Part shown: one piece after another, positions 2,660 to 60,689 of the stretch
Position numbering within the stretch: position 1 is the first letter of the stretch
Layout: the number at the start of each line of letters is the position of its first letter
Assembly: GCA_016208495.1 (NCBI GenBank)
Contig: JACQXX010000072.1
Location: 1-64,000, forward strand
Direction of reading: 5' to 3'
Length of the DNA: 64,000 nucleotides
DNA from: Acidobacteriota bacterium
GTDB taxonomy: Bacteria > Acidobacteriota > Blastocatellia > Chloracidobacteriales > Chloracidobacteriaceae
The notes under the pieces: model-generated
Told to the model about the DNA's origin: nothing
Databases searched by the model: none
The model's input: only the letters and a program-made list of their open reading frames with translations
Program-made: the position numbers and the translations under genes

Positions 2660-2785
2660 GGGCTGAAACCAAGGGATGAGGGATGAAGGATGAGGGATGA
2701 AAGAAAGCAAATTCTTAGCCCTCAGCCCTAATCCCTCAGCCCCAAGTCTTCAGCCCCAAGCCTTCAGCCCCAAGGTCTTCAGCCC
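2660..2785. repeat. Intergenic tandem repeats: GGGATGAG/GGATGAAG octamers followed by a CAGCCCCAAG(N)CTT-type unit
   Basis: Direct reading. The repeats lie inside the annotated N-terminal extension of the 2697 ORF, which is the reason the later ATG at 2850 is preferred as start. Confidence 0.8.
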
Positions 2786-2849
2786 AGACACCGCACGTTT
2801 GATCCTTCCTCGATCCACACCACGCAATTTGTTCCTTCGAAGGTGGCTT

Positions 2850-4382
2850 ATGTCAAAGCGACTTCATCAGGAAAAAGTATCGAAATCGGAATCACCCGCC
2901 AACCGGGTGACGCTGGCGGACTTCGAAGACCAGCTCACCCACCTTGGATTTTCTCCTGACGTGGCGCATCAGGTGTGCCAGTCATTTATGGAAGGACTCC
3001 GGAAGTCGTTGGTGCGGGGTGAGGAAGTGAAGCTCCGAGGATTCGGCAATTTCCGTCGAATGCGCCGAAAGCGAAAGGGAAGTGATCCCACAGCCGACGG
3101 TGGCGTCGCTGATCGCTATGCGTATTCCGTAAAATTTCGACCCAGTCGGCGGCTGATTGGGTTGCTGTATGGGAAGGACATTCCAGAAACCGGGGTTTTT
3201 CTCTCCCTTGACGAAGCCCTGCTCCAGTTTCTGGACCAACCCTCACCGAAACCAGAATCACCGAAACCGCCAAAGAAAAAACCAGTCAAGAAACTGGCGG
3301 CAGTTGACCCGGACAATGTTCCGCAGTTGCTGCCCAACATTACCCTGGTCCCGGCCCACGTCAGCGCACTCAATCGAACCGGCGAGATTGTTTTTGAACT
3401 CCCTTCGGTGGTTGAGTTTCCGGAACCTGATCCGGAGGCGGGGATGCCGCTGATTGAATTTAATCTTCCTCCTGGATTGAGTCCTGAGATTGATACTTCG
3501 TTTGAAGTTGAGTCCACGCTCAGACTTGGATCCCCACCCCCACCGCCAGGTTTTGTCGCCCCATCGTCCCCATTGCCCTCCATCGAAGAATTTACCGAGC
3601 CCGTGGTTGAAGATGACGAAGAACCGCGTGACCGGTCCCGGATGCCCCCCACGCCTGATGATTTGGAAGCCGCGGAAGGGATGGATTTCGAAACCCACTA
3701 TGATTTGGGGATTTCCTACAAAGAAATGGGGTTGTACGATCAATCCGTTCGCGAACTCCATCGGGCGATTCAAAAAGTACCTCCGACTGATGAAGCCGGA
3801 CGATATATGAGCTGTTGCACACTCCTCGGAATGTGTTACCGCGAAAAGCAGATGTATCTTCAGTCGGTGGATTGGTTCCAGCATGCCCTGACGCTGACGA
3901 AACCGGCTGATGCCAGTTATCTGGCCCTGCAGTATGAGCTTGGATTGACCTATGACCTGGCCGGTCAGACGTTTAATGCCCTGGCCGCCTTTTCTGAGGT
4001 GTATGCCCTGGACGTGAATTTTCGCGAGGTGGCCGAGAAGGTCCGATTCCTGCAAAACGAAGTGATTGTGCGGGCCGAGCGGATGCAAAAAATGATCCCG
4101 ATTCATATTCGGGCCATTGCGTCCTCTGGCCAGCGAATTGACGAAGACACCTGGATTGTGAACATCAGCCGGCGTGGCGCCGGATTAAAAACAAATATCG
4201 AGCACGAATCCGGGTCCCTGATCGAAGTTGAATTTACTCAGGCTGGAAAGCGACACCTTGGGAAGGTTGTCTGGTGCGCTCCGTCAAAGGATCAGGACAG
4301 TTCCTATCGCATGGGAATTACCTTGATTACCGACGCAGAACTTGGTGTTGAGGATTGGCCTCGACCGATAGCACAGGGATGA
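2850..4382 (+). CDS. Multidomain protein: N-terminal HU/IHF-like DNA-binding domain, central TPR-like region, C-terminal PilZ-like (c-di-GMP-binding type) domain
   Basis: The HU/IHF signature is EVKLRGFGNFRRMRRKRKG...ADRYAYSVKFRPSRRL (GFGxF arm). TPR-like helices are at DLGISYKEMGLYDQSVRELHRAIQ and downstream. The C-terminus has IHIRA...QRIDEDTWIVNISRRGAGLKT, resembling the PilZ RxxxR...(D/N)xSxxG motif. The start was chosen at ATG 2850 (MSKRL) because the 2697-2849 stretch is built from tandem repeats. Confidence 0.6.
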   Translation: MSKRLHQEKVSKSESPANRVTLADFEDQLTHLGFSPDVAHQVCQSFMEGLRKSLVRGEEVKLRGFGNFRRMRRKRKGSDPTADGGVADRYAYSVKFRPSRRLIGLLYGKDIPETGVFLSLDEALLQFLDQPSPKPESPKPPKKKPVKKLAAVDPDNVPQLLPNITLVPAHVSALNRTGEIVFELPSVVEFPEPDPEAGMPLIEFNLPPGLSPEIDTSFEVESTLRLGSPPPPPGFVAPSSPLPSIEEFTEPVVEDDEEPRDRSRMPPTPDDLEAAEGMDFETHYDLGISYKEMGLYDQSVRELHRAIQKVPPTDEAGRYMSCCTLLGMCYREKQMYLQSVDWFQHALTLTKPADASYLALQYELGLTYDLAGQTFNALAAFSEVYALDVNFREVAEKVRFLQNEVIVRAERMQKMIPIHIRAIASSGQRIDEDTWIVNISRRGAGLKTNIEHESGSLIEVEFTQAGKRHLGKVVWCAPSKDQDSSYRMGITLITDAELGVEDWPRPIAQG

Positions 4383-6862: not shown

Positions 6863-7065
6863 TGGATGACAGGGTGACAGGGTGACAGGGTGACAGGGTG
6901 ACAAGGTGACAGAATGACAGGGTGACAAGGTGACAGGGTGACAAGGTGATATTCTTCATTCTTTTGAAAACCCTGAACCCCAAACCCCGAACCCCGAACC
7001 CTGAACCCCGAACCTGAACCCCGAACCCCGAACCCTAAACCCCAAACCCTAAACCCCAAACCCCA
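6863..7065. repeat. Intergenic tandem arrays: GGGTGACA octamer x ~11 (variants AAGGTGACA, GAATGACA), then GAACCCC/AAACCCC heptamer x ~14
   Basis: Direct reading between the stop at 6862 and the start at 7072. Confidence 0.9.
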
Positions 7066-8520: not shown

Positions 8521-8728
8521 GGTTAAAAAACAACTTCCCGATTTTCATTTGGGTCGAAGCCATTTTCTTTTGAGTTCGGTGGTACTTTCCCTGACAAAAG
8601 CTCAGAACCCATTGAAGTCTTTGAATTTCTTTTTCGTGTATTTCGTGTATTTCGTGGTTTCCTGTTCTGAAATTGGATCTCTCCGGGTGACTTTCGATAA
8701 AAACGGGAAGTTGTATTTTTACAGTCCC
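8521..8728. repeat. Small element bounded by inverted copies of a ~28-nt motif (AAAAAACAACTTCCCGATTTTC ... GGGAAGTTGTATTTTTACAGTCCC), with internal TTCGTGTAT tandem copies
   Basis: The motif at 8528-8553 is the reverse complement of the motif at 8699-8728. A third copy follows the stop codon at 25856. Confidence 0.6.
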
Positions 8729-9119: not shown

Positions 9120-9253
9120 ACTTTTGTTCTTGTAATACCATTTTGGAATGAAGCGGTCGTATTAGAAAACAGTCAAGTCATTCAATAAAATGAACTTAGT
9201 GAACTACTGACTACTGACTACTGACTACTGACTACAAACTGGTATAAGGAGAC
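9120..9253 (+). promoter_or_regulatory. Conserved gene-upstream element, copy A (ATACCATTTTGGAATGAAGCGGTCGTATTAGAAAACAGTCAAGTCATTCAA...GAACTA[CTGACTA]n CAAACTGGTATAAGGAG)
   Basis: The same 5' and 3' flanks, with a variable number of CTGACTA heptamers, recur at 23085-23200 and 56440-56560. Partial copies are at 1-82 and 47270-47300. All copies are oriented towards the downstream plus-strand gene. Confidence 0.5.
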
Positions 9254-9259
9254 GTGTCT

Positions 9260-9646
9260 ATGCCGCGAATTTGCCATTTTGAAATCCATGCCGAAAACCC
9301 CGAGCGAGCCATCACTTTTTACACCAGCGTGTTTGGCTGGAAATTCCAGCAGTGGGGAGACCAACCGTACTGGTTGATTGAAACCGGACCCAAAGGGCAA
9401 TCAGGCATTGATGGTGGATTACTGCCCCGCCACGGAGCGCCGCCGGTTGGCGGTGAGCCTGTGAATGCCTTTGTCTGCACGGTTGATGTTGATAACCTGG
9501 ATGCGTATAGTGCCAAAGTAACCGAACACGGTGCCACTCTGGCCGTCCCAAAAATGCCGATCCCGACGGTTGGCTGGCTGGCTTATTATAAAGACACCGA
9601 AGGCAATATTTTCGGGATGATGCAATCTGACCCCGAAGCCAAATAA
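9260..9646 (+). CDS. VOC-family protein (glyoxalase/bleomycin-resistance/dioxygenase fold)
   Basis: HFEIHAENPERAITFYTSVFGW...GNIFGMMQ is the typical VOC pattern. ATG 9260 is preceded by AAGGAG 7 nt upstream; the listed GTG at 9254 is a less likely start. Confidence 0.85.
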   Translation: MPRICHFEIHAENPERAITFYTSVFGWKFQQWGDQPYWLIETGPKGQSGIDGGLLPRHGAPPVGGEPVNAFVCTVDVDNLDAYSAKVTEHGATLAVPKMPIPTVGWLAYYKDTEGNIFGMMQSDPEAK

Positions 9647-12006: not shown

Positions 12007-12114
12007 GATCCTCCGGCTTGGGCATTCAACTTTGAAACCAATGCCGAGTGTGACCTGAAAGCGTTACACCTCTGAGGCTGAACCTTTAAGTTTGTGTGAG
12101 GTTGGTGTTACGGA

Positions 12115-12215
12115 ATGAAGAATGAAAAAAATATTTAGTGGTTAGTGGTTAGTGGTTAGAACTCAATACTTTCCAAGAACCAGGAACCAACCGCTAACCA
12201 CATTCTTCATTCTTC
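12115..12215. repeat. Nested inverted tandem repeats: GAAGAATGAA ... (GTGGTTAGTGG)x3 ... CTAACCAC ... TTCATTCTTC
   Basis: Direct reading, in the intergenic region between convergent genes. Confidence 0.85.
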
Positions 12216-12216
12216 G

Positions 12217-12828
12217 TCAGGTGATGACGCGCAGATAGCTCCAGCCGCCGGTCAAAAGGTCTTCTTCAGAAAGACCGTCTTCGGCGCTGCCAGGAATGAC
12301 AAAAACACCGTCGGCCAGAATGGTTTCAGGATCTAAGTACAACAATCCATCGAGCAAACTGCGGAGGGTTTCGCGCCGCCAGTAGAGTGTTTCTTCTGAA
12401 ACATTCGCTGGTGGGTAGGGCTCGGTGAGGTGGAAAATCAGCGTCACCGCAACATAGTCTTTGGACTTTGAGAGGCGGCGCATGCCGTCTACGTCGTGGT
12501 CGAGTTCTTCGTGTTCAGTCGCGGTGTTGGCGGAAAGCTCAGTCGCCCAGGTATTAAATTCGGTTTCAGATTCCGTGTGGTCAGTTTTGTAATCCCAGAA
12601 AAGCTGGCTCCAATAGGGCTCCTGTTCCATCAGGAGTGCGATAATGCGTTTGATGTATCGCCGTTTCGCTTCAACATCTTCCAGCGTTCCATCCGGATCA
12701 GAAATCACACGGGCGAATTTGGCCCGGAGGGTGTCTTCGCCAAAGGCGCGAATCACGACTTGAATGCCAAGAAAGTAGCTTTGTTCGCCACCGCCAAAAA
12801 TACGAGAAAACCAGGATCGTCGAGTCAT
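12217..12828 (-). CDS. Hypothetical protein (203 aa)
   Basis: The ORF has a clean start and codon usage consistent with its neighbours. I recognise no family. Confidence 0.55.
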   Translation of the reverse strand: MTRRSWFSRIFGGGEQSYFLGIQVVIRAFGEDTLRAKFARVISDPDGTLEDVEAKRRYIKRIIALLMEQEPYWSQLFWDYKTDHTESETEFNTWATELSANTATEHEELDHDVDGMRRLSKSKDYVAVTLIFHLTEPYPPANVSEETLYWRRETLRSLLDGLLYLDPETILADGVFVIPGSAEDGLSEEDLLTGGWSYLRVIT

Positions 12829-16105: not shown

Positions 16106-17392
16106 ATGAACCCCAAACACCTGATTTGGATTGGAATTGGATTGAGCCTGGTCGTGGGGCTGACATTTGGCACGCCAACTGAATGTGCATCGCCTGGAAA
16201 ACCATGGAAACAAACAAATTCTGCCTGGACAGTGGTACCCGATACCGGGTTTTCAGTTCCTGGAGCGACCCCCAATGTGGGCTGGGTTGATAACCAGGTG
16301 TGGCTGGTTGTTGGGACACGGGAAGGGCAGCGGCTGTACCGGTCAACTGACGGCACCAATAAAACCCAGGCTGAACCCATTGGTGGGCTGAATGTTTCGC
16401 TCACCGGCACCGATTTTGTCCCGACTGAAACCGTGCCTCGGGAAGCCGCCGATGGCACCAACGAACTGTATGTACTGGGGCTTGGGCGACCAGAGACGAA
16501 CTCGGCTGTTCTGTTTCGGTTGCGTGACACTGGGCAGGGGCAGTTTGTCAGGTCACCGGAAGCCGCCGTGTATCGGGGTTCTGAGGCTGATAAAAATTTT
16601 ATCGGAGTTCCAGACGTCTATCCGGCCCCAGATGGCTCGCTCCGGCTGGTTTATGTGGCGCGAGGTTCGTCAGTGAATTCCAACACCGCGCTTTCCACCG
16701 ATGGCGGTGCCTCATTTCAATTCGAATTCAATAACCCATTTCAAGACTATGGATTGCCGTTGTCAGCCCAGACCAACAACGTGGATCCCGCCGTGGTCAA
16801 ACTGGCCAGCGGCAGCTATCTGGCCGTCACGATGCGGGCGACCAAATTGTATCTGTTCAGCAGTTTGAACGGGCGCGAGTTCACGCCCGTGGATATGCCT
16901 GCACTTGAAGGCTCACTCTTTGGCAGTGCCTCGCTGGGGTTTTTTGACCCGACACTGGTGCAACTTCCGGATGGGAAAGTTCTGATGTTTGTCACCCTGG
17001 GAGATTTTCGGTCGCCGGGAAATGAAAAAGTGGTGCGATTTGTCCTGACTCAAAATCAGTCCAGTTCCTTGCCGCCACAGGTTCAGGTCCTTTCGCCCAA
17101 CGGCGGCGAGAAAGTCAGGGCGGGGCAAAGCCTGCAAATTCAGTGGCAGGCAACCGATGACACGGTGCTTGCCAGCCACGACATCATGCTTTCGACGGAT
17201 GCCGGCGCCAGTTTCCCAACCGTGCTGGTCAGTGGGTTACCAGCCGATGCACGTGAATTTGTATTTGTCGTTCCTACCAATCAGTCGAAGACCAAAACCG
17301 CCCGCATCCGGGTTGTTTCAGTGGATACCGACGGGAATCGCGGTCAGGATGAAAGCGACGGGAATTTTCGGATTGCGAAAAAACGGGGCTGA
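16106..17392 (+). CDS. Secreted BNR/Asp-box repeat protein (sialidase-like beta-propeller fold, function unknown)
   Basis: It has a signal peptide and Asp-box-like motifs STDGGASF and STDAGASF. The RBS AAAGGA is 8 nt upstream. Confidence 0.65.
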
Positions 17393-17507
17393 AGAAGGCG
17401 GGCTTGGGGCTGAAGACTCGCAAGCTCGGGGCTGAAGAGGTTGGGTCAGTATTCAACCCGTTTTCTTCAGCCCCCAGCCCTGAGCCCGAAGTCTTCAGCC
17501 CTCATCC
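17393..17507. repeat. Inverted arrays of the GGCTGAAGA / TCTTCAGCC unit
   Basis: Direct reading. Confidence 0.85.
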
Positions 17508-22196: not shown

Positions 22197-22475
22197 AAGT
22201 TTCCTGAGATATTGGATTGGGTAAGTGTTTGATTCTTTTCGTGTAGTTCGTGTGTTTCGTGGTTTAAAATGTCTGGAAATTTTCGGTAAGGTACTTAAGT
22301 CCTTTGGTTCGTGATGAGGAAGTTTCCAAAATCAATGTCATCACGGGATTTGTGACAGGAACAATTTTTTTTCCACAAACTGAGTTGAAACTGGAATCTT
22401 TGTGTTCCGTCAAGAACACTGGCTATTGCATTACTTTGCTACTTCACTCTTTTTGCTATTTCGCTCTTTCACTTC

Positions 22476-23084: not shown

Positions 23085-23200
23085 GAGTGGTATTACCATT
23101 GTGCAATGACGTGCTTGTATTAGAAAATAGTCAAGTGATTCAATCAAATGAACTGAGCGAACTACTGACTACTGACTGCTGACTACAAACTGGTATGATA
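23085..23200 (+). promoter_or_regulatory. Conserved gene-upstream element, copy B (ATTACCATTGTGCAATGACGTGCTTGTATTAGAAAATAGTCAAGTGATTCAA...[CTGACTA]3...CAAACTGGTATGAT)
   Basis: It aligns with copies A and C and has 3 heptamer copies, one of them CTGACTG. Confidence 0.5.
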
Positions 23201-25894: not shown

Positions 25895-26145
25895 ATCAGG
25901 TATTTGGATTGAGCATCCCGGAGGGCTGCAGTTCGGATAGCCGGTGGTTGCGAAGCTTTGTGAGCTACCACCGGGAACAGGTTCGTCCTCTCCAGTGCTC
26001 CCCCGCTTCGCCCGCGCCCCCGCAGGGGCGCGGGCGAAGCGGGGGAGCAACAAGGGGGGTAGCCTTTGGATCCGGTGGTAGGCCCAAAGCGGCCAACCGA
26101 CCGGCTATCCGAACTGCAACGCTTCGCGGTGCAAGACCAAAACCT
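25895..26145. repeat. GC-rich multi-hairpin palindromic element (MITE/REP-like)
   Basis: GCAGTTCGGATAGCCGGT (25931-) is the reverse complement of ACCGGCTATCCGAACTGC (26101-). The central hairpin CCCCGCTTCGCCCGCGCCCC-CGCA-GGGGCGCGGGCGAAGCGGGG is perfect over 20 bp. There are additional GGTAGCC...CCGGTGGTAGG stems. Confidence 0.7.
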
Positions 26146-26244
26146 GGACGTGGCAGAACGCGCCCCAGGAACTTATTTTTTAACGCTCCCTAAGGCATTC
26201 AGGGTTCAGGGTCATAAGCGTATTTTCGCCAAGATAAGGAACTT

Positions 26245-26405
26245 TGAGCGTGTTTGAGACAAGGAGACAAGGGGACAAAGGGACAAAGGGACAAAGGGAC
26301 AAGAAAAAACGGATGATCCCATTTCCCGCCCCCCAGCCGGGAGTCATTCCAGTTTGTAGCCGTTGATTTGATGTCTCCCTGTCTCCCTGTCTCCTTGTCT
26401 GGATC
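26245..26405. repeat. Inverted arrays of GACAAGGGGA/GGACAAAGGG with complementary TCTCCCTGTC copies
   Basis: Direct reading. The same unit family recurs at 41440-41460, 58290-58430 and 60430-60460. Confidence 0.85.
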
Positions 26406-26459
26406 GGGTCCTTGTCTCTTAATCCTGGCCTTTATGGGAGTTACAGGTCTGAACCGATA

Positions 26460-27241: not shown

Positions 27242-27826
27242 CTATTCTTTGAACGCGTTAATGGCTGTGCTTTCACAGGGTTTGAAGAAATCGCCGCCAA
27301 AGACCACATTTAAGAGTTGCTTGCGCATTCCCTGAACCCGGCTCAGGGTCATTTCCGGCGAGTTATTGCCTTCGTCAAAGGGGCAGGTCCGGGCAATGGC
27401 TTCCAGAAGCGGGAGTTGATGCCGCAATTTGACTTCCATCAATCGAAAGAGCTTATCGCGTTTTTTTGCCTTCATCGGCGACTGGCGGGCATAACACTCC
27501 AGATAGCTTAAAAGCTGGTTATAGGCCGCGAGTGAGCCGTGAACTGAATCAAACTCTTCGGCCTGCATGGCTTGAGCCGCTTGATTGAGCCGGGCCATTC
27601 CAATTTTCAGACCAGCTTCAAGGTGATCTTCCGGGTCATCTTCGTCAATCAAAATTGATTTTTCAGCATCGGTCAGCACAGCGGGAATCTCCATCCCCGC
27701 ACCGGCGGTGCCAGCGGCGGTTGCATAACAAGGGAGTGTCTCAATCCCAAGAATCACCAGGAAAAACAGCCCCCAGACCAGCCAAACCTTTCCGAGAACC
27801 AAATGTTGTGTCTGATGGTGTCGCAT
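27242..27826 (-). CDS. Hypothetical exported protein (194 aa)
   Basis: It has an N-terminal hydrophobic segment and is in the same orientation and closely spaced with the lipoprotein gene downstream. Confidence 0.5.
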   Translation of the reverse strand: MRHHQTQHLVLGKVWLVWGLFFLVILGIETLPCYATAAGTAGAGMEIPAVLTDAEKSILIDEDDPEDHLEAGLKIGMARLNQAAQAMQAEEFDSVHGSLAAYNQLLSYLECYARQSPMKAKKRDKLFRLMEVKLRHQLPLLEAIARTCPFDEGNNSPEMTLSRVQGMRKQLLNVVFGGDFFKPCESTAINAFKE

Positions 27827-27989
27827 GGCGTCCCTCCTTGCTGCTGTGGCCGAGTTCCGTCAGGGGATTGACTGCGATCTTGCATCTTGGGGGACTGGCC
27901 TTATGGTTGGCCGTTGCACCTGAAAAGTTCACCCAGAATGTTTGATCCTGACAAGGCGACTGAGATGGAAGCTCAGCAAGTTGACGAAT

Positions 27990-28385
27990 GAAGCGAAGTA
28001 GCGAAAAAGAAGCGAGTGGTGAGTAGCGAGTAGCGAGTAGTCAACCGTTGGGTACTTCAAATGGTTTGTTGTTTTGGTGAGCAGGAAGACCCAAATTGAA
28101 TAATTCAGATTTTAGGGAGTCGGATGGAAATATCATACCACCAGGGTTCAGGGTTCAGGGTTCAGGGTTCAGGGTTCAGGGCCAGATACTCCACGTTGAG
28201 CGGTACCCGCCAGTTCCCCCGTCTTCATCTTGAGTGGGATCAGTCAACTCATCGCCGAAACCCTGAACCCTGACCCCTAACCCCGCTGAACCCTGAACCC
28301 TGAACCCGATTTCAGTGGGATTTTATTTTCTTCTGGGTCCCTTACTACTCGCTACTCACTACTCACTACTCACTAGCCTTATTTG
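27990..28385. repeat. Large nested inverted-repeat region built from tandem units: (AGTAGCGAGT)n ... (GGGTTCA)5 ... centre ... (GAACCCT)n ... (ACTACTCGCT/ACTCACTACT)n
   Basis: Direct reading. The outer decamer arrays (28008-28040 and 28340-28380) and the inner heptamer arrays (28143-28180 and 28261-28300) are mutually reverse-complementary. Confidence 0.85.
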
Positions 28386-29887
28386 CGTGGCCCTTGCTTC
28401 TCAACCTGGCGTTTGAGGCTGGGAAGACGAAGATTCACTTTTTCAATTTCAAGCTGATTGGTTTGTGGATTGGCTCGTTCGACAAACAACTCGTAGGCTT
28501 TCAGGGCCTGGGCATAGTCTCCCAACCGGTCAAAACAGATTCCCAGAAAGTAGTAGGTCACGGGGACATCTGGGCGTTTCTGGATCATCCACAGAAAGTG
28601 CTGGGCGGCGGTAGGGAATTGTTCAAGTTTGAACAACGCCGTTGCCAGCCCGGCGTGGGCAGCATAACTTTCCGGGTCCTGGTTGAGAATGGTGCGAAAG
28701 CTGGTGGCAGCTTCCTGAAAGCGTTGCGACTTGAGCAAACCGGATGCGACTCCGGCTTGTGCGTCAGGGGAACGGGGGTTGATGGAGAGGGCTTTTTGGT
28801 AGGCATCCAACGCAAGCGCCGGATCGGTGCCTTGTGCCGCATCTCCCAGTTTTACCCACCACGTGGCATTTTTGGGTTCTTGTTTGGTCAACTCGGAATA
28901 CTGTTCGATGGCTTCGGTCGCCCGATTGCCTTCCATCAGTAATTCCCCAAAAGCGGCCCGCAATGGTCCATTGCTTGAATGGTGCTGTAATGCAGTCTGG
29001 GCAAATTGAATTCCATCCTCGGTGAGTTTGGTCGCCCGATAGAGGTCAAGCATATCACGGGCCAAAACCGGATCCGGTTCAATTGTGTACAGGGCCTGAA
29101 AATCGGCCAGTGCTTTGGGGTAATTCTTCTGGCTCAGGTAGGCAACCGCGCGACTCCGCAAGAGAAGTGGTTGAATACCTAATCGGTTGAGACCATCGGA
29201 CAGAGTCTGGAAGGCGCCAGGAGCGTCGCCACTGAGTCGTTGGGCTTCGGCATACACCGCATAAAAGGACGGATCCGCAGGCGGTGTCTGGGCAAGCTCC
29301 TTGAGTAAGGCGAGGGCTTCGGCTGGAGCTTTCCGGACCAGCATGAGTTGGGCCGCGCCAAGGCGGGCAAATCCAAGGGACGAATCAAGTTCAATCGCTC
29401 GCAAAAACGCTTTTTCAGCTTCAATCGGCTTTTTGCACCGGGTCTGGGCTTCACCAAGCATGGCAAATCCGCGAGCAAAATCATCTTGAAGTTCGACACA
29501 GCGGATCAGTGCGGCTGCGGCGTCTTCAAACCGGTTGAGTGAGAGCAGGGCGATGCCGCGCTGGTAATGAACGGCAAACAACTGATCATCGAGTTGCAAT
29601 GCCTCATCATAGAGCTTGATGGCATCGGTGAACTTGCCCTGGGCATGAAAATCCTGACCCGTGTCAAATTTTTGAGCCGCCAGGGCCTGCCGGTCATCGA
29701 GCGATTCACCCAAAGCGGTATCTTCCGAAGCCGCATTCCGGGTTGATTCGACCTTTTTTCCGTTTTTGGGGGAGGACGCACGTTGGGCAATCGCTGAAGT
29801 GGTGGCCAGATTGAACCACCCTGTCAGCGCCAACAGCCAGATGGAAATTTTCCACAAGACACGTTGCGACCTCATCTCATTGACCAA
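28379..29887 (-). CDS. Secreted TPR-repeat protein
   Basis: It has a signal peptide (WLLALTGWFNLATTSAIAQ) and more than 10 recognisable TPR units (AxxxYxxAL / GxAxxLG pattern). Confidence 0.8.
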   Translation of the reverse strand: MVNEMRSQRVLWKISIWLLALTGWFNLATTSAIAQRASSPKNGKKVESTRNAASEDTALGESLDDRQALAAQKFDTGQDFHAQGKFTDAIKLYDEALQLDDQLFAVHYQRGIALLSLNRFEDAAAALIRCVELQDDFARGFAMLGEAQTRCKKPIEAEKAFLRAIELDSSLGFARLGAAQLMLVRKAPAEALALLKELAQTPPADPSFYAVYAEAQRLSGDAPGAFQTLSDGLNRLGIQPLLLRSRAVAYLSQKNYPKALADFQALYTIEPDPVLARDMLDLYRATKLTEDGIQFAQTALQHHSSNGPLRAAFGELLMEGNRATEAIEQYSELTKQEPKNATWWVKLGDAAQGTDPALALDAYQKALSINPRSPDAQAGVASGLLKSQRFQEAATSFRTILNQDPESYAAHAGLATALFKLEQFPTAAQHFLWMIQKRPDVPVTYYFLGICFDRLGDYAQALKAYELFVERANPQTNQLEIEKVNLRLPSLKRQVEKQGPRK

Positions 29888-30057
29888 ACTTTGAAAAACG
29901 CAATAAATGCTGAGTGTTGCGAGTAAAAAAGAGAGTGCGGAAAATGCACGAAAGGCCCTGAAACTCTAGCCCAGATACTGGTATTTGAAAACCCTAAATG
30001 TCGTAAAGAATGCTAGAATTACGGGAAAAATCATCACATTACGAAAGAGCATAGTTC

Positions 30058-30965: not shown

Positions 30966-31043
<78 letters not shown>

Positions 31044-31750: not shown

Positions 31751-31931
31751 AACGCTGCTTGATCACACAAAACCAGACCACTCATATACTTACCGCACTC
31801 ATACTCTTTTATACCTGCATTTTACGGTGGGCCAGCGGTGGCGCGCCGTTCCAGGTCGGTTTTCGTTTGGTCCAGCGTCACGTCTTTCCAGCCTCTCACT
31901 ATCCCATTCAATCTGAAACGGAGAAATTCAC

Positions 31932-32870: not shown

Positions 32871-32965
32871 AATGAAGAATGAAGAATGAAGAATGAAGAA
32901 AATAAGAAGTTGAATTTTTTTCTTCATTCTCAATTCTTCATTCTCAATTCTTCACTTTGAGTTCT
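32871..32965. repeat. Inverted tandem arrays (GAAGAATGAA)n ... (TTCATTCTCAATTCTTCA)n
   Basis: Direct reading. Confidence 0.85.
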
Positions 32966-32987
32966 TCATTCTTCATTCAAAAAAACT

Positions 32988-34037
32988 ATGCGACATACAA
33001 TCACTTTGATTCCCGGAGACGGAATTGGACCTGAGGTAACGGCTGCCACCCTGCGTGTGATCGAGGCAGCCGGTGTTGAAATTCGATGGGAGAAATATGC
33101 GGCTGGGGCCGAGGCCCTGGGTCAGTATGGAACGCCGCTCCCCGATAACCTACTGGCCTCAATTCGCCGAACCCGAGTTGCCCTCAAAGGCCCGGTAACG
33201 ACACCCATCGGAACTGGGTTTACCAGCGTCAACGTTGGGTTGCGGAAAGCACTCGATTTGTATGCCAACTTGCGGCCCGTTAAATCATTGCCCGGAGTCA
33301 AATCCCGCTATGAAAACATTGATTTGATTGTAGTTCGGGAAAATACCGAAGACCTGTACTCAGGACTTGAACACGTGGTGGTGCCAGGGGTTGTGGAAAG
33401 TCTGAAGGTGATTACTGAAGTGGCTTCGACCCGCATTTCCCGCTTTGCCTGCGATTACGCCCGCAAACACAAACGTCGCAAGGTGACTGCCGTCCACAAA
33501 GCAAATATTATGAAGCTTTCCGACGGCCTGTTTCTGGATTGCTTCCGCAAGGTAAGTCAGCATTATCCGGAAATCGAACCTGAAGATAAGATTGTTGATA
33601 ATGCCTGTATGCAGTTGGTGATGTATCCGGAAAAGTACGATGTACTGTTGATGGAAAACCTCTATGGCGACATCCTTTCCGATCTGTGTACCGGACTGGT
33701 TGGCGGCCTGGGGGTTGTCCCAGGTGCCAATATTGGCGACAACATGGCGGTCTTTGAAGCTGTTCACGGCAGTGCCCCGGACATTGCCGGGCAAGGATTG
33801 GCCAATCCGACCGCATTGATTATGACCGCCATCATGATGCTGGACCACATCAACGAGATCGAAGCCTCCCGCAACATTGAGAAAGCTTTGTTTGAAGTGT
33901 TGACTGAAGGAAAATCTTTGACCCGTGACCTGGGTGGCAACTCCAGCACAATGCAATTTACCGAAGCCATTGCTTCACGCCTTGAAGCCTGGCGGGCAGA
34001 GAAAGCAGATGAAGCGAAAGAGCGAAAGAGCGAGTAG
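32988..34037 (+). CDS. Isocitrate/isopropylmalate dehydrogenase-family enzyme, most like NAD-dependent isocitrate (or homoisocitrate) dehydrogenase
   Basis: It has LIPGDGIGPEV and NLYGDILSDL plus the metal and substrate ligands typical of beta-decarboxylating dehydrogenases. It is 349 aa. Confidence 0.85.
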   Translation: MRHTITLIPGDGIGPEVTAATLRVIEAAGVEIRWEKYAAGAEALGQYGTPLPDNLLASIRRTRVALKGPVTTPIGTGFTSVNVGLRKALDLYANLRPVKSLPGVKSRYENIDLIVVRENTEDLYSGLEHVVVPGVVESLKVITEVASTRISRFACDYARKHKRRKVTAVHKANIMKLSDGLFLDCFRKVSQHYPEIEPEDKIVDNACMQLVMYPEKYDVLLMENLYGDILSDLCTGLVGGLGVVPGANIGDNMAVFEAVHGSAPDIAGQGLANPTALIMTAIMMLDHINEIEASRNIEKALFEVLTEGKSLTRDLGGNSSTMQFTEAIASRLEAWRAEKADEAKERKSE

Positions 34038-34212
34038 CGAGATAGCGAGTAGCGAGTAGTCAATCAAGAGCGAGTAGCGAGTAGTCAATCCAACCCAAAC
34101 AGTATTTTATCTGTTACCTTCGTAACGAATTGACTGAGTAAGGGATAACCTGAATGACAGTAAGTTTGGATTGACTACTTGCTATCTCGCTATCTCGCTA
34201 CTCGCTTTTGTG
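34026..34212. repeat. Inverted arrays of AGTAGCGAGT / GCGAGATAGC units flanking a ~90-nt unique centre
   Basis: Direct reading. The array overlaps the 3' ends of both convergent genes. Confidence 0.85.
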
Positions 34213-36922: not shown

Positions 36923-36944
36923 GAAATATTTCCTCTTGAAGTTG

Positions 36945-37075
36945 AAAAAATAGGGCTGAAAAAACCAGGGCTGAAGAAGTTGGACTGAAGACATTGGGCC
37001 AGGGGGCTGAGGGCTGAAGATAAGGGCTGAAGACGTCAGGCTGAAGAAAACGGGTGAAATCAATCCTAACACTAC
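36945..37075. repeat. Tandem GGCTGAAGA-type nonamer array (inverted partner copies at 37318-37360)
   Basis: Direct reading. The arrays flank the multi-hairpin element at 37090-37315. Confidence 0.85.
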
Positions 37076-37089
37076 AACGAGGTTTTAAT

Positions 37090-37315
37090 AAAAAACCGGG
37101 TCTTAAGCCCAGGAACTGGGTGGCAGGCATGTAGCCCAGAGTGCAACCCTGGGACCAACGGCCTGCTCTCCCTCCCCGCCGGCAACCGCCTACGGCGGTT
37201 GCCGGCGGGGAGGGAGAAATTGGGGATGACCGTCAACCCAGGGTTTCGAAGACTCCACCCTGGGCTACATGCCATCACCCGCTTCGCAGGTTAAAACCGA
37301 AACCTCGTTGTAGTA
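37090..37315. repeat. Palindromic multi-hairpin element (MITE-like). Outer arms GGCATGTAGCCCAG...CCCTGGG / CCCAGGG...CTGGGCTACATGCC, with a 23-bp perfect central hairpin CTCCCTCCCCGCCGGCAACCGCC-TAC-GGCGGTTGCCGGCGGGGAGGGAG
   Basis: Direct reading. It is related to the elements at 47040-47250 and 8941-8957 (shared CGCCCAGTTCCTGGGCT and CCCAGGGTT..CCCTGGGCTAC.TGCC blocks). Confidence 0.7.
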
Positions 37316-37374
37316 CTAAGCCCGATGTCTTCAGTCCCAAGCCCTGAGCCCTGGTTTTTTCAGCCCGTTAGTCT

Positions 37375-39736: not shown

Positions 39737-40188
39737 AGGGAAGATAAAACCCGTCGGTTGATGTGAGTCGTGATTGAATGTGAAAAAACGTGAGAAACTT
39801 TTTGAAACTGCAAACGCCTGCTGGAAAGCGCCGCCATCATACTGCAAGGGGTGCGGCAAGGCAAGCCTTGGCTTGGCGCAAATTGGCACTAACTTGCACA
39901 ACCTGAGTTGCTTAGAAGGTTACCCCTGTGTATGATGGATGATCAGGATCATCCTCGCTGCAGCAACCTGTTACTGCGATTTCACATCACAAGGTGCTGA
40001 AAATCTGCAGCAAGTACCTGAAAAGTTCCAGCAAACAGATCGTTTCGCCTCGCATTCACCTGGAAAAAGTTGCAACCATATGTAACTCGCCACGTTTGTG
40101 AGGCATCTCATCCTCATAGAATAGCCTGCTCGACGGAGGATTTTTGGCTGTGCAAGACATTAACCATCTCAATAACTCACTCAATCCA

Positions 40189-41343: not shown

Positions 41344-41367
41344 CACCGACTCAAATTTCACTTTCCG

Positions 41368-41408
41368 AAAGAGCACCGAATCGAATAGATTCGGTGCTCT
41401 TTTGTTTT
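41368..41408 (+). terminator. Rho-independent terminator
   Basis: A 13-bp stem AGAGCACCGAATC / GATTCGGTGCTCT with loop GAATA, followed by TTTTGTTTT. Confidence 0.85.
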
Positions 41409-41513
41409 GGGGTTGGGGCAGTAAAAAAAGACAAAAGGACGCAAGGGACAAAAAGGACATAAATTCAAAACCCTGAACCCTGAACCCTGAACCCTGATTT
41501 CAGGAGATTTCCT

Positions 41514-44068: not shown

Positions 44069-44485
44069 GTTGACTTCCTCTTGCTCTTAAACTGTGGTGG
44101 ATATCGTGTTTGTGTTCAGGGGCACTGTAAATTCAAATTACACCAAAACCTGGCTAAAAACACAAAAAGTTTGTTTTGCAAAAAAATGGATCGAAATTCT
44201 GACCGTGGAACTGATGAAACGCTACAACCAATTTCTTTTCAATACCATACCAGTACTGAGACACTGGCGGAGGCTTTTGGGTTCCACCCGCTGGAGCGAA
44301 ATTTCCGGCATCCGGCATAGGAGAGCCTGTGCAAGATCAACTAAAGTGCTGCAAATAAAGAATGAAGAATGAAGAATGAAGAAACGCTAAATAGTTCTTA
44401 TTCAATAGAATAGAATCGGAAACCACTGCTCGAATCATTTTTCAACGCCTGTCTTCAAATCAATTTTCTTCCATCAAAAAGTGCC

Positions 44486-45289
44486 ATGCCTCACTCATCC
44501 GAATCAACCAATAAAGCCGCAAACCCGCTCGAAGCCGAAGGACAACAGCGAGCCAGACGTGTCCAGCAGATGTTTTCCGAAATCGCACCCCGCTATGACC
44601 TGCTCAACCATCTGCTTTCAATGAATATTGATAAGCGCTGGCGACGCTTTACCGTGCGCAAACTGCAGGATGTCCTTGATCAGCCTGGAGCGACCGCGCT
44701 TGATATTTGTTGTGGGACCGGCGATTTGTCGCTCGAACTTGGTCAGAAAGTGCCCACCATCGGCGTTGATTTTTGCCATCCGATGCTGGTGATTGGGCTT
44801 GAAAAAGTGCGCAAGACCGGGTTGCCGGTTCGCTTATGTGCCGGTGATGCTTTGAACCTGCCGTTTCAGGATGCCCGGTTCGATGCCGTCACCAATGCGT
44901 TCGGCCTTCGAAACGTGACCGATGTCGAACGTGGACTGGCCGAAGTATACCGCGTCCTCAAACCTGGAGGCCGGGCCGCCATTCTGGAGTTTTCTCGTCC
45001 AATTCTCCCAGGGTTTCGTGAAGCCTTTCAATGGTACTTTAACCACGTTTTGCCCCGCATTGGCGGTATGATTTCGGGCTCCAGTATGGCGTATACCTAC
45101 CTGCCGACTTCGGTGAAAAGCTTCCCTGATCAAAAACAACTGGCTGACCTGATGCGCAAAGTCGGGTTTACCGACGTCAAATATCATAACCTTTCAGGCG
45201 GTATTGCTGCCCTGCATTTGGGAAACAAGCCGAAGAATGAAGAATTGAGAATGAAGAATGAAGAATTGAGAATGAAGAATGAAGAATGA
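44486..45289 (+). CDS. ubiE: Demethylmenaquinone/ubiquinone C-methyltransferase UbiE/MenG
   Basis: It has the class I SAM-MTase motif LDICCGTGDLS and UbiE-specific N-terminal and C-terminal blocks (FSEIAPRYDLLN, RVLKPGGR). The last ~17 codons (KNEELRMKNEELRMKNEE) are encoded by the GAAGAATGAA tandem array, so the true stop is uncertain. Confidence 0.85.
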   Translation: MPHSSESTNKAANPLEAEGQQRARRVQQMFSEIAPRYDLLNHLLSMNIDKRWRRFTVRKLQDVLDQPGATALDICCGTGDLSLELGQKVPTIGVDFCHPMLVIGLEKVRKTGLPVRLCAGDALNLPFQDARFDAVTNAFGLRNVTDVERGLAEVYRVLKPGGRAAILEFSRPILPGFREAFQWYFNHVLPRIGGMISGSSMAYTYLPTSVKSFPDQKQLADLMRKVGFTDVKYHNLSGGIAALHLGNKPKNEELRMKNEELRMKNEE

Positions 45290-45470
45290 AGAAATAAACT
45301 GGTGCTTGGTTCTTAGTGCCTGGTTTCGAAAACCCGGAACCCGGAACCCGGAACCCGGAACCCGGAACCCGGAACCCGGAACCCGGAACCCGGAACCCGG
45401 AACCCGGAACCCGGAACCCGGAACCCGGAACCCGGTGTATTCTTCATTCTTCATTCCCACACCGTCCGTT
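45226..45470. repeat. Nested inverted repeat: (GAAGAATGAA/GAATTGAGAAT)n ... (GGAACCCG)x14 ... TTCATTCTTCATTC
   Basis: Direct reading. The octamer array spans 45322-45435. Confidence 0.9.
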
Positions 45471-46989: not shown

Positions 46990-47300
46990 CAGTAGTCAGT
47001 AGTCAGTAATGCCCGTTAAGAGTTGAAGTGGTTTTTAGTTCTCATCCCGCAGGGATGGAGCAAAGTTAGCCGGTGGTCAGCGTCGCTTTGGACGCGCCAC
47101 CACCGGATGCGAGTCAGTTCCAGATTTTCCCCACCCGGCCAGCCGCCGCCGTAGGCGGCGGCTAGCCGGGTGGGGGTGAGAAGGCAATCTTTCCCAGGGT
47201 TAAAACCCTGGGCTACCTGCCTTCCGCCCAGTTCCTGGGCTCAAATCCGCTCTTTTTTCAACTCTTAATTCAGATTACTGACTACTGCCTACAAATTGGC
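46990..47300. repeat. Multi-hairpin element (at least 5 consecutive stem-loops) ending in a partial copy of the CTGACTA upstream element
   Basis: The hairpins are CTCATCCC-GCAG-GGATGGAG; CCGGTGGT...ACCACCGG; CCACCCGGCCAGCCGCCGCCGTAGGCGGCGGCTAGCCGGGTGGG; CCCAGGGTTAAAACCCTGGG; GCCCAGTTCCTGGGC. It is followed by ATTACTGACTACTGCCTACAAATTGGCATGAA. Confidence 0.7.
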
Positions 47301-47343
47301 ATGAATTTGGCACAACAAGACATTGAAAGAACGGGAGTTAAAT

Positions 47344-50536: not shown

Positions 50537-50537
50537 A

Positions 50538-50609
50538 GTCAGTACCACCTGCGTAAGTGGGTGGGATTGTGTCTAAACGGACCCACCCGCTTACGCAGGT
50601 GGTACTGAC
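50538..50609. other. Near-perfect 28-bp inverted repeat (GTCAGTACCACCTGCGTAAGTGGGTGGG / CCCACCCGCTTACGCAGGTGGTACTGAC) with a ~16-nt loop
   Basis: Direct reading. There is one G/A difference (a G-U wobble if RNA). It lies 2 nt after the permease stop, with no T-tract after it. Confidence 0.8.
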
Positions 50610-50640
50610 TGTCCAAGCCCTCAGCCCTCAGCCCTAAAAT

Positions 50641-52017: not shown

Positions 52018-52245
52018 AAGGGTTTCGGGTTTCGGGTTTCGGGTTTTCGAAGAGGGCGCGGTTCAAAGCAACAGCGCCCTTACTTTTTGTCACCTTGTCA
52101 CCTTGTCATTCTGTCACCTTGTCATATTCATATCCTTCAAAGAAATTGGACAGCGACAGATGATTTTCCTCTGTCGCTTTTTTGTCGTCAGGGTACACAA
52201 TGAACCCTGAACCCTGAACCCTGAACCCCGAACCCTAACTGCTTT
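52018..52245. repeat. Arrays (GGGTTTC)x4 ... (GTCACCTT)x4 ... unique ... (GAACCCT)x5
   Basis: Direct reading. Confidence 0.85.
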
Positions 52246-53566: not shown

Positions 53567-53690
53567 GGTTTGGGGTTCAGGGTTCAGGGTTCAGGGTTCA
53601 GGGTTTTCGAAAAATCACCTTGTCACCTTGTCACCTTGTCACTTTGTCACTTTGTCACTTTGTCACTTTGTCACCTGAAACCAGACTCCG
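53567..53690. repeat. (GGGTTCA)x5 followed by (CACCTTGT/CACTTTGT)x8
   Basis: Direct reading. Confidence 0.9.
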
Positions 53691-53917
53691 CTTGCCAAAG
53701 GGCGGCGAAATGCGTTAAACCTAAGTCTCGCTTTTTCTACACGCAAAAACCCTTTCAATTATCCTGTTCCCTGGCTGTTTTCAACTTTGTCGGTCTGACA
53801 GTAAACCCCAGCCCTGGTGTTTTTCTGGCGGATATGCACGCATCGAAGCGGTCAGGAAGTTCACCCCGACGTCTCAAACAAGCAGCATTTGACCTTTGAA
53901 TCTGGAGGACACCTCAC

Positions 53918-56439: not shown

Positions 56440-56560
56440 AGCGGTCATATTAGAAAATAGTCAAGTTATTGAACCCAGTGAAGGTAGTGAACCATTGACC
56501 ACTGACCACTGACCACTGACTACTGACTACTGACTACTGACTACAAGCTGGCATAACAGA
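56440..56560 (+). promoter_or_regulatory. Conserved gene-upstream element, copy C (AAAGCGGTCATATTAGAAAATAGTCAAGTTATTGAA...(CTGACCA)x3(CTGACTA)x4 CAAGCTGGCATAAC)
   Basis: It aligns with copies A and B. The heptamer array here is 7 units, including CTGACCA variants. Confidence 0.5.
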
Positions 56561-56596
56561 TTTCCACCCAAAGCCTGATACCAAACGAGGAAACCC

Positions 56597-58228: not shown

Positions 58229-58269
58229 CAGGTGTTTCAGGCTTGGGGCTGAGGGCCATACACGCCAGG

Positions 58270-58440
58270 ATAAGAAAACAAAGTCCGATCTGGACAAGGG
58301 GACAAGGAGACAAGGAGACACGGAGACACAATGGATCGCTTCATTTCCCCGCACCCAATCGGAACTCATTCACATTTACAAACTCCGTGGAATTGTCTCC
58401 GTGTCTCCGTGTCTCCCCTTCTCCTTGTCTCAAACACACT
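58270..58440. repeat. Inverted arrays (GACAAGGGGA/GACAAGGAGA/GACACGGAGA) ... (TCTCCGTGTC/TCTCCTTGTC)
   Basis: Direct reading. Confidence 0.85.
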
Positions 58441-58557
58441 CAACTTTCCTTATCCTGGCGCTTATGAGGCTGAGGGCTTGGGATCCAATACCTTCCAGTC
58501 ACCAAGACAAAACCAGATGTGCTTTACCAATCTTAACGAGAAGAAATCGAGGGAACT

Positions 58558-60188: not shown

Positions 60189-60689
60189 CAGGGTGACACG
60201 ATTCCTCGTTATATGCATCAAGCGAAGGATTTGAGGCCCGCAGGGTCGTCATCGGGTATAGAATTTCAGATAAAGAAACCACGAAACACACGAACTACAC
60301 GAAAAAGAAAGCCAAATTTTTCAATGGTTTCTGAACGATGATCACCAAAAACACCAGGGCAATATTTATCTGAAAAACTATAGCTGTGGTGCGAAGCCCA
60401 TAAGCGCCAGGATAAGGAAACAGAACCCGATCTGGACAAGGGGACAAGGGGACAATGGAATTTTTTCATCCCTCATCCTTCATCCCTCATCCCTTGAAAG
60501 AGCCCCGAAACCCCGGTGGTATGATATTTCCATCCGACTCCCCAAACATCACTTGTTTGCTGGTTCAAAGTTCGCACGCCTTGGCTCGAAAACTCATCGC
60601 CGCTTGTCTTCACTTTTCCCAACCACTCTCTTTCGCGACGAGTGGGAGCTGTTTGTACAAAATCTAGGCTCACGCAGGCGGTACTGACC

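Follow-up and report, generated by a model that had tools for sequence, protein, structure and literature searches.

The question raised by the 64-kb stretch of acidobacterial DNA analysed here (hereafter the window, positions 1 to 64,000 of contig JACQXX010000072.1) is why so many of its gene boundaries carry arrays of short tandem repeats facing each other as inverted pairs, and what such pairs may do for the genes that they separate. The spacer at 27827-28378, which is 552 nucleotides (nt) long and lies between two minus-strand genes, is our focal case, and in it one inverted pair of arrays is nested within another. The assignment of these arrays to the long simple sequence repeats (SSRs) with heptamer or octamer units is firm. 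The explanation that we favour as a whole, namely heptamer and octamer arrays of the long SSR class, driven by slippage and with inverted pairs acting as hairpins at transcript boundaries, has in our judgement slightly better than an even chance of being correct. Taken on its own, a function of the array pairs as transcript-boundary hairpins is a tentative proposal, which we would place somewhat below an even chance.

Arrays are those called by Tandem Repeats Finder (TRF) at a score of at least 40, after removal of redundancy, and spacers were counted when at least 40 nt long. For comparison we used two contigs from metagenome-assembled genomes (MAGs), L002 and L003, which are syntenic with window positions 22367-42544 and whose genes are 77-92% identical in nt. 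The focal spacer and its neighbours comprise the following features, with the strand given where there is one.

27242-27826, minus strand: open reading frame (ORF) for a 194-amino-acid protein with no Pfam match; downstream neighbour on the transcribed (minus) strand.
27827-28009: array-free conserved part of the spacer (183 nt), 96-97% aligned to L002 and L003, the remaining spacer being unaligned.
27990-28040: purine-rich outer arm on the left, GAAGCGAAGTAGCGAAA and then (AGCGAGT/GGTGAGT) x4.3; TRF array at 28011-28040.
28115-28141, plus strand: unique 27-nt head GGGAGTCGGATGGAAATATCATACCAC, adjoining the (GGGTTCA) array on its 5' side.
28142-28181: inner left arm, (GGGTTCA) x5.7, with 100% matches in TRF.
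28182-28258: centre (loop) of the inner hairpin, 77 nt of unique sequence.
28259-28307: inner right arm, (AACCCTG) x6.7, degenerate (81% matches in TRF), with CCCTAA- and CCCCG-type variants.
28344-28375: outer right arm, (ACTACTC/ACTCGCT) x4.6 by TRF, 3 nt from the TAA stop codon of the TPR gene.
28379-29887, minus strand: gene for a TPR-repeat protein of 502 amino acids, upstream on the transcribed strand; TAA stop codon at 28379-28381.

The palindrome starts directly after the stop codon of the TPR gene. Its outer arms pair 28011-28040 with 28344-28374 at 90% complementarity over 31 nt, while the inner (GGGTTCA) arm pairs with 28286-28307 at 100% over 22 nt, and, read as sense (minus-strand) RNA, 27985-28380 is predicted to fold at -176.3 kcal/mol (z = -9.0), a stability reached by none of 100 dinucleotide shuffles. 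The giant nested palindrome of two units described in the original prediction is thus real at 27990-28375, given the TRF arms, their complementarity and the fold. Its spacer had been drawn from 27242, and has to be shortened, since 27242-27826 is the conserved gene for the 194-amino-acid protein; likewise, the outer units, given as 10-mers, are heptamers by TRF. The 194-amino-acid protein and its gene call recur exactly on an independent Logan contig, the gene is 84-89% identical in nt in L002 and L003, and the segment 27827-28009 probably represents its promoter and 5' untranslated region. Cruciform extrusion from DNA needs short central spacers, and with arms 77-300 nt apart the cruciforms that had also been suggested are unlikely. 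A canonical G-quadruplex (G4) motif is present at 28144-28167, inside the (GGGTTCA) arm, and the head GGGAGTCGGATGGAAATATCATACCAC has an exact inverted copy at 60516-60542, which likewise stands directly 5' of G-rich repeats. The centre at 28182-28258 recurs neither elsewhere in the window nor in the loci fetched, the focal spacer contains no credible small ORF, and comparison of the focal region with Rfam gave only sub-threshold matches to miRNA-like hairpins and no family.

Across the window 55 arrays were found, the commonest periods being 7 (n = 24) and 8 (n = 10). All but one of the 34 arrays with these two periods are intergenic, where spacers make up 17% of the window (binomial p = 9e-23), as are 43 of the 55 arrays of all periods. 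They are present in 29 of 39 spacers, hence at most gene boundaries and not at almost every one as had been claimed, and they cover 17% of spacer bases (27% in the focal spacer), which does not sustain the description of the intergenic regions as built almost entirely from repeats. The view that the unit vocabulary is limited, the geometry paired and inverted and the hairpin potential long was, nonetheless, essentially right: AACCCTG occurs in 11 arrays (including 28263-28307), ACTACTG and AAGAATG in six each (including variants of period 14, 21 and 23), an octamer family containing GACA also recurs, and the longest arrays reach 15 perfect copies. Canonical G4 motifs number 21 against 1.3 expected, nearly all of them within spacer arrays; the motif is present in the GGGTTCA, TGACAGGG, AGGGCTG and AGGGATG families and absent from about half of the unit families. 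The density of period-7/8 arrays is 0.53 per kb in the window, falling to 0.18-0.28 among its closest relatives and to 0.05-0.14 among Blastocatellia further removed, with approximately zero in about 75 loci of other bacteria fetched in the same search. At about 0.5 arrays per kb the window has roughly ten times the density of the single-family counts of Xanthomonas or Geobacter, if published totals and usual genome sizes are taken for these. The arrays had been called unusual for bacteria, and in density against the control loci this stands; the architecture itself is already known in bacteria, with precedents in Xanthomonas (PMC4692102) and Geobacter metallireducens (PMC2700814).

Since a collapsed or chimeric assembly had been named as the circumstance that would overturn these observations, the authenticity of the arrays has to be considered. 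The short-read contigs of this organism do break at arrays. Nevertheless, two independent Logan contigs of run SRR12113402 are identical to the window across parts of three arrays, terminating inside arrays as expected of short reads, and MAGs from other projects carry similar arrays at corresponding positions; in addition, rules of gene-boundary placement and polarity such as those described below would not come from an artefact. This objection is thus largely refuted, with the exception of exact copy numbers, because the SRR12113402 contigs break at arrays and the length of long ones such as (AACCCGG)15 is not verifiable from short reads. We regard the probability that the arrays are artefacts as practically negligible.

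The placement of arrays depends on the orientation of the neighbouring genes. They occupy 19 of 23 co-directional, all seven convergent and two of seven divergent spacers, so that spacers having a gene 3' end contain arrays in 26 of 30 cases against two of seven for divergent ones (Fisher p = 0.005), and coverage follows the same order (25%, 16% and 3.4% of co-directional, convergent and divergent spacer, respectively). Likewise, folds with z < -5 are restricted to spacers with a gene 3' end. Where the same unit occurs twice within one spacer the two arrays are always inverted (10 pairs, against no direct one), at least six different units being paired in this way, with loops of 19-302 nt. By GC skew, the G- or purine-rich arm is 5' and the C- or pyrimidine-rich arm 3' in all ten pairs; when all arrays are considered, there is a correlation between GC skew and where an array lies in its spacer (rho = -0.46, p = 0.0005), and neighbouring arrays run from purine-rich to pyrimidine-rich in 12 cases against one in reverse (p = 0.003). 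As an inverted repeat is identical on both strands, a transcript coming from either neighbouring gene reaches the G-rich arm first. On the sense strand, G-rich arrays begin 0-11 nt past stop codons, between C-rich arrays and the following start codon there are 5-17 nt, and the polarity is the same in six informative pairs of related genomes. In public metagenomes (GGGTTCA)4 is common (at least 120 loci), and among the matches listed an exact partner lies downstream in six loci (five where both sides extend over 300 nt or more, a set of 65 loci) and upstream in none. Many of the listed contigs also hold long (CCCTAAA)n, which suggests that these represent eukaryotic telomere-variant repeats rather than bacterial spacers.

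The comparison of arrays across relatives that had been recommended was made with L002 and L003, and it sets hypervariable array-bearing spacers against conserved array-free ones. Spacers without arrays have the same length in the window and in these contigs and are 92-97.5% identical (for instance, 29888-30057, 31751-31931 and 39902-40143), whereas in array-bearing spacers, which measure 49-603 nt, the repeat parts are unalignable and have been completely replaced. In the focal spacer an inner GGGTTCA/AACCCTG module of about 300 nt is missing from both L002 and L003, which beyond the conserved 183 nt have a small purine-rich/pyrimidine-rich hairpin of different units (z of about -2.5). Orthologous sites therefore keep hairpin potential with differing sequence, and at a given site this potential tends to persist while the sequence is exchanged. 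As far as sequence comparison can tell, the nested structures are new hairpin modules added inside the loop of an older one. Furthermore, the GGGTTCA arm is perfect and its partner has 81% matches, hence the arms evolve independently, which fits ongoing slippage. For a comparison of copy number within the species, exact-protein matches were found in one sample only, its contigs ending in arrays, and a conserved 24-mer anchor beside the focal arrays gave no match in the metagenome scan. A textbook intrinsic terminator, GAAAGAGCACCGAATCG-AATAG-ATTCGGTGCTCTTTTGTTTT, was noticed at 41366-41410 of the window and at 17652-17695 of L003, in both directly upstream of hypervariable arrays: after the conserved terminator in the spacer at 41344-41513, L003 has (CGGGTTC)5...(CCGGAAC)3 and the window a decayed left arm and (AACCCTG)4. 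The consensus terminator scan missed the copy at 41366-41410.

Turnover of this kind is also what would be expected of selfish or neutral DNA, that is, of miniature foldback modules resembling MITEs (miniature inverted-repeat transposable elements), together with slippage products, which would persist where harmless and bring no benefit to the host. In accordance with such an origin, the exchange between close relatives is complete, arrays are limited to the non-conserved segments of spacers, inner modules present in the window are missing at the same loop position in relatives, and the arms evolve independently, a perfect one facing a degenerate one. Conserved flanks, which were found by masking the arrays and searching the remaining sequence for repeats, point in the same direction. 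CATAAGCGCCAGGATAAGGAAAC...GATCTG stands ahead of five (GACAAGGR)n arrays, every inverted pair of which combines one A-type with one B-type head, the GGGTTCA-type 27-mer is present in two copies, and the (CTGACTA)n arrays have a flank of their own. Most GGGTTCA-type arrays, however, lack a conserved flank and adjoin ORF ends, and self-BLAST of the spacers returned array-to-array matches, a few short heads and no repeated centre. Neither a transposase nor a target-site duplication nor a constant length of element was detected in the window, and the non-repeat centres are unique. Accordingly, since the self-BLAST gave only these matches and the focal centre has a single copy, a MITE identity for all arrays was rejected. 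Moreover, random insertion leaves unexplained the strict G-first polarity and the abutment on stop and start codons, and these positional rules are encountered again in unrelated phyla. We consider it rather unlikely that the arrays are selfish or neutral DNA.

The (CTGACTA)n family always lies sense-upstream of a gene start; its sites are 1-118, 9203-9260, 23161-23200, 47277-47322 and 56496-56596. Four of its arrays are followed by CAAACTGGYATRA, which resembles a -10 box, and the distance from the penultimate CTGACT to the TATRAK box is 16 nt, like the -35/-10 spacing of a promoter. This module, pointing at the downstream gene, may be a portable promoter.

Based on the placement and polarity described above, the explanation that we favour can be laid out as a sequence of steps. 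Replication slippage would expand and contract the arrays, leaving one arm perfect and its partner decayed, and the inverted partner would originate either where a hairpin already exists, by intrastrand template switching, or by a short hairpin module being inserted into a loop. The arrays would survive only in spacer segments free of promoter or operator. A transcript leaving either neighbouring gene would then fold into a long hairpin, whose pyrimidine-rich 3' arm is proposed to make a weak RNA:DNA hybrid, and this hairpin might act as a transcript-boundary element through termination, insulation or protection of the 3' end. The arrays may be seen as the expanded A/G-rich and U/C-rich flanks of hairpins resembling bidirectional terminators, which consist of an A-rich flank, a stem-loop and a U-rich flank, although for the G-rich arms folding into G4 would be an alternative. 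We favour this reading because arrays begin at stop codons, avoid divergent promoter regions and have a polarity that corresponds to the layout of a bidirectional terminator. In fact, terminator-like cores are found at 17393-17507 (core at 17439-17458) and at 32871-32987, where the pyrimidine-rich arm gives a U-rich tail.

Several observations weigh against a role at transcript boundaries. The sense RNA is no more stable than its complement, the antisense strand folding better in 14 of 23 co-directional or edge spacers, with one tie, so that no RNA-specific G-U signature is detected; of the termination or insulation role suggested earlier, 3'-end placement, abutment on stop codons, G-first polarity and avoidance of divergent spacers would be in favour, and this missing signature stands on the other side. 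Consensus terminators are not enriched in the window (34, 20 and 26 against 25.5, 25.4 and 26.5 expected from shuffles). Most array hairpins have no canonical U-tract after the stem-loop, and apart from the two terminator-like cores their identity as intrinsic (Rho-independent) terminators was rejected on this ground. The arrays in the spacer at 41344-41513 follow a conserved canonical terminator and are thus dispensable for termination there, and the (CTGACTA)n family looks associated with promoters and not with terminators. A purely structural role does not predict a limited vocabulary or identical units in distant phyla. Finally, the general polarity of TRF arrays in mixed metagenome loci, among the matches listed, is 15:8, which is not significant, telomere-like arrays of eukaryotes being a contaminant.

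Heptamer arrays have been catalogued in bacterial spacers since 1990, and we know of no function or mechanism demonstrated for them. A close architectural likeness is with Geobacter metallireducens, whose paired sites fall into three classes. The two sites of a pair stand on opposite strands, a variable distance apart, each composed of 3-5 tandem 7-9-mers and some mixing classes, and they lie between co-directional or convergent genes and even within operons (PMC2700814); in the part of the supplementary table considered here the pairs are all 3'/5' or 3'/3' and none is 5'/5'. Aklujkar et al. (2009) annotated these sites as binding sites of global regulators and proposed IHF/HU (PMC2700814). 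The window has the same opposite strands, variable distance, tandem 7-9-mers and several unit classes, and the class 2 unit TCTCCGTS is identical to the window octamer TGTCTCCG at 58394-58431, a rotation of TCTCCGTG. On the other hand, G. metallireducens belongs to another phylum, about 53 pairs were reported in its 4-Mb genome against 10 pairs in the 64-kb window, and its units GTTGCTYN and MTYCTGA were not found in the window.

This likeness brings in the possibility that arrays are cooperative binding sites of sequence-specific proteins, either IHF/HU-type regulators or single-strand binders such as cold-shock proteins or S1, the pairs looping DNA or clamping RNA. The small recurrent vocabulary implies a constraint on sequence and not on structure alone, and the octamer TCTCCGTG is shared with the class 2 sites for which the annotators proposed IHF/HU (PMC2700814). 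Furthermore, a preprint on Nostoc reports that the recO promoter responds differently to NtcA and LexA when heptamer repeats are deleted, the effects being modest (bioRxiv 10.1101/2022.06.06.494920), and binding of S1, Csp or CsrA was proposed by MacGregor for TAACTGA repeats (PMC4679880). Nevertheless, at least ten different units would require many different proteins, a binding protein has been identified in none of the published systems, and a protein binding duplex DNA would find units repeated every 7 bp out of phase with the helix. Orthologous spacers at about 90% genome identity have other units or none, a pattern at odds with that of conserved regulatory sites, and the array-free spacers are the conserved ones. 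Protein binding as the explanation of the arrays seems to us decidedly unlikely.

The second precedent is that of Rehm et al. (2015), who described intergenic heptamers, GGGAATC in Xanthomonas and GGGGA(C/T)T in Nostoc, that form G4 in vitro (PMC4692102). Their G-rich strand is coding within 50 bp past stops and non-coding before starts, they are rare between divergent ORFs, convergent paired cases number 70 in Xcc (186 repeat sites in total) and 75 in Xac (183 in total), and copy number differs between relatives (PMC4692102). The convergent pairs, the strand rule with respect to position and the deficit in divergent spacers are all found in the window. In contrast, Xanthomonas and Nostoc have a single unit family per genome and the window at least ten, many of them without G-runs; 83% of the sites are kept between Xanthomonas species and in the window the repeat parts are fully replaced at about 10% coding divergence; and nested two-unit palindromes, present in the window, are not described for the Xanthomonas and Nostoc repeats. 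No array of their consensus GGGNATC appears in the TRF table of the window, where the units are GGGTTCA, GGGTTTC, CGGGTTC and others.

From the same precedent arises the proposal that arrays are G4 or i-motif switches, in which G3 arrays on the non-template strand after stops would form G4 or R-loops that pause or terminate RNA polymerase, in competition with the hairpin. The number of canonical motifs, 21 against 1.3 expected, agrees with it, and so does a G-rich strand that is sense past stops and antisense before starts, as in the repeats of Xanthomonas and Nostoc that form G4 in vitro (PMC4692102). However, about half of the families (AGCGAGT, ACTACTG, GAAGAAT, GACAAGGA and TTGTCACC) have no G3 run and display the same geometry, and in vivo evidence exists in no species. 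We hold such switches to be a highly improbable account of the arrays.

The window also agrees with the general class of long SSRs or cyanobacterial short tandemly repeated repetitive (STRR) sequences in having tandem 7-8-mers, a non-coding bias and few units spread over many loci. For these Mrazek et al. (2007), as cited in PMC4679880 and PMC4692102, reported heptanucleotides as the commonest long SSR, with an intergenic bias, a sporadic phylogenetic distribution and slippage as the proposed origin; a paired inverted architecture is not in the definition of the class as given there. TAACTGA heptamers, whose unit contains stop codons, form arrays just upstream of starts in marine Beggiatoaceae, cyanobacteria and Bacteroidetes (MacGregor, 2015; PMC4679880). 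They resemble the (CTGACTA)n arrays of the window in being sense-upstream of gene starts, and the window in general in that a unit is common to distant phyla, but they are nearly all direct (one inverted set in 170) and their unit differs from those of the window. REP, BIME and REPIN elements are likewise intergenic, hairpin-forming and located at gene 3' ends, and some window families have conserved termini as they do; nevertheless, the window arms are tandem non-palindromic 7-8-mers and not an imperfect palindrome of 20-40 nt, and this identity was rejected on unit size, no RAYT-like gene being found among the 30 largest window ORFs scanned. As to MITE or foldback elements, heads are conserved at five ends of the GACAAGG family and the 27-mer has two copies, but the centres are unique and most arrays have no conserved flank. 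A CRISPR array was rejected, as the units are 7-8 nt long and contiguous, with no spacers. A literature search found no report of heptamer-type repeats in Chloracidobacterium or other Acidobacteria.

The sharing of units between distant phyla leads to a more speculative alternative, in which the arrays would not stem passively from slippage but would be left by a dedicated system, shared horizontally among these phyla, that would install G-first convergent pairs as bidirectional insulators acting through G4, R-loops or hairpins. Candidates could be a protein reading 7-8-nt units in register, or a repeat-adding activity like that of telomerase or reverse transcriptase. The occurrence of TCTCCGTG in Geobacter and of GGGTTCA in metagenomes, the telomere-like units (CCCTAA and CCCCAAA) and the invariant polarity hint at such a system, which we nevertheless regard as very unlikely.

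Returning to the transcript-boundary hairpins, 11 further sites had been listed as following the logic of the focal spacer, and inverted array pairs are indeed found at nine of them; the exceptions are 6863-7065 and 53567-53690, where neither array is the reverse complement of the other. The sites have the following composition.

12113-12215: second nested two-unit palindrome, (GAATGAA)2, (TTAGTGG)3.6, loop, CCGCTAACCAC and (ATTCTTC)2.
17384-17501: inverted pair of GGGGCTGAAGA-type and TCTTCAGCCCC-type arrays, filling a convergent spacer around a core hairpin with a T-rich tail; z = -7.4.
26215-26445: inverted pair (GACAAAGG)5.6 and (TGTCTCCC)3.6; each outer end has a conserved head (GCCAGGATAAGGAA...).
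32871-32978: inverted pair (AATGAAG)4.3 and (TTCTTCA)8, reaching from a stop codon up to 9 nt short of the following start codon; z = -4.8.
34013-34206: inverted pair (AGCGAGT/AGCGAGAT) and (GCTATCTC), filling a convergent spacer and overlapping both ORF ends.
36943-37365: long hairpin, its left side made of GGGCTGAAGA-type and its right side of AGCCCTG-type arrays, with a GC-rich palindromic element of about 200 nt enclosed.
45232-45456: outer pair (GAAGAAT)8.9 and (ATTCTTC)2.6, flanking a perfect (AACCCGG)15.
52020-52236: (GGGTTTC)3.9 paired with (TGAACCC)5.1 over the whole spacer between stop and start; a further array, (TTGTCACC)4.8, lies inside and has no partner.
58262-58466: inverted pair (GACAAGGA)4.5 and (TGTCTCCG)4.8, with conserved heads.
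6867-7064: (TGACAGGG)10.4 directly 3' of a stop and (AACCCCG-type)14 directly 5' of the next start.
53567-53690: two adjacent arrays.

The palindrome at 12113-12215 begins at the stop codon of the minus-strand gene 12217-12828, and the right arm of the pair at 26215-26445 is covered by an independent contig. The pair at 32871-32978 is absent in L002 and L003, which have a GC hairpin instead (two copies in L002 and one in L003), and at the position of 34013-34206 L003 has a different purine/pyrimidine pair. At 6867-7064 the order is G-rich then C-rich, yet the two arrays are not true reverse complements. The perfect (AACCCGG)x15 at 45331-45435 is the longest array of the window, and because its unit has the palindrome CCGG it can pair with itself.

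Long GC-rich palindromes constitute a second kind of spacer element. They were observed at 25913-26132, 37103-37300, 47035-47256 and 50537-50610, located in the loops of array hairpins, and have perfect cores of 24-25 bp (for example, 25996-26049, 37167-37217 and 47128-47176). Two of them, at 37085-37310 and 47030-47255, show 75% identity in inverted orientation and thus belong to a dispersed family; the palindrome of about 200 nt inside 36943-37365 is not in L003, and none of these elements was found in the loci of the relatives. In addition, a 9-mer family, TTTCGTGTA, occurs in three spacers (8626-8674, 22238-22261 and 60262-60310). Two of these are 90% identical to each other along 49 nt, an indication of one more short dispersed element.

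The window has a G+C content of about 52% and its genes include sigma-54 activators, TonB, OmpA and TPR, NHL and pentapeptide proteins. For the dehydrogenase gene at 32988-34037 the nearest relatives are uncultured Acidobacteriota, the L002 and L003 contigs being at 95% amino-acid identity, followed by Blastocatellia MAGs at 78-84% and Chloracidobacterium at about 80%, which makes the host a Blastocatellia-like acidobacterium. L002 is deposited as 'uncultured Clostridia bacterium' and another contig, L005, as 'Actinomycetota bacterium', although they are syntenic with or close to the acidobacterial window, and these record titles are probably the result of mis-binning or mislabelling. The only RNA gene to reach threshold in the Rfam scan of the window is a tRNA-Pro (TGG) at 30966-31043, with a (CCCTGAA)5 array about 80 nt upstream. 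The ORF at 2697-4382 has an unusual architecture, in which TPR repeats and a PilZ domain at the C terminus are combined with an HU-like domain for DNA binding. C-rich arrays at 2717-2785 overlap with the 5' end given in its annotation, hence the real start codon is probably further downstream. Several other genuine ORFs likewise appear over-extended 5' into arrays. Mechanical ORFs of 92-125 amino acids cross arrays at 53570-53899, 58200-58577 and 44094-44372; these are probably spurious, and automatic annotation would be misled by them.

Taken together with the published systems, the window is a very dense case of the heptamer-array class, with several vocabularies. What it adds is the strict G-first polarity, the nesting of modules in loops, the hypervariability of array-bearing spacers against the conservation of array-free ones, and the families with conserved flanks. 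For these Acidobacteriota the arrays have a practical consequence, as they fragment short-read assemblies and gene callers run ORFs into them. In turn, this genome and its relatives may offer a natural comparative system in which transcript-boundary, protein-binding and selfish-DNA explanations of such arrays can be set against each other.

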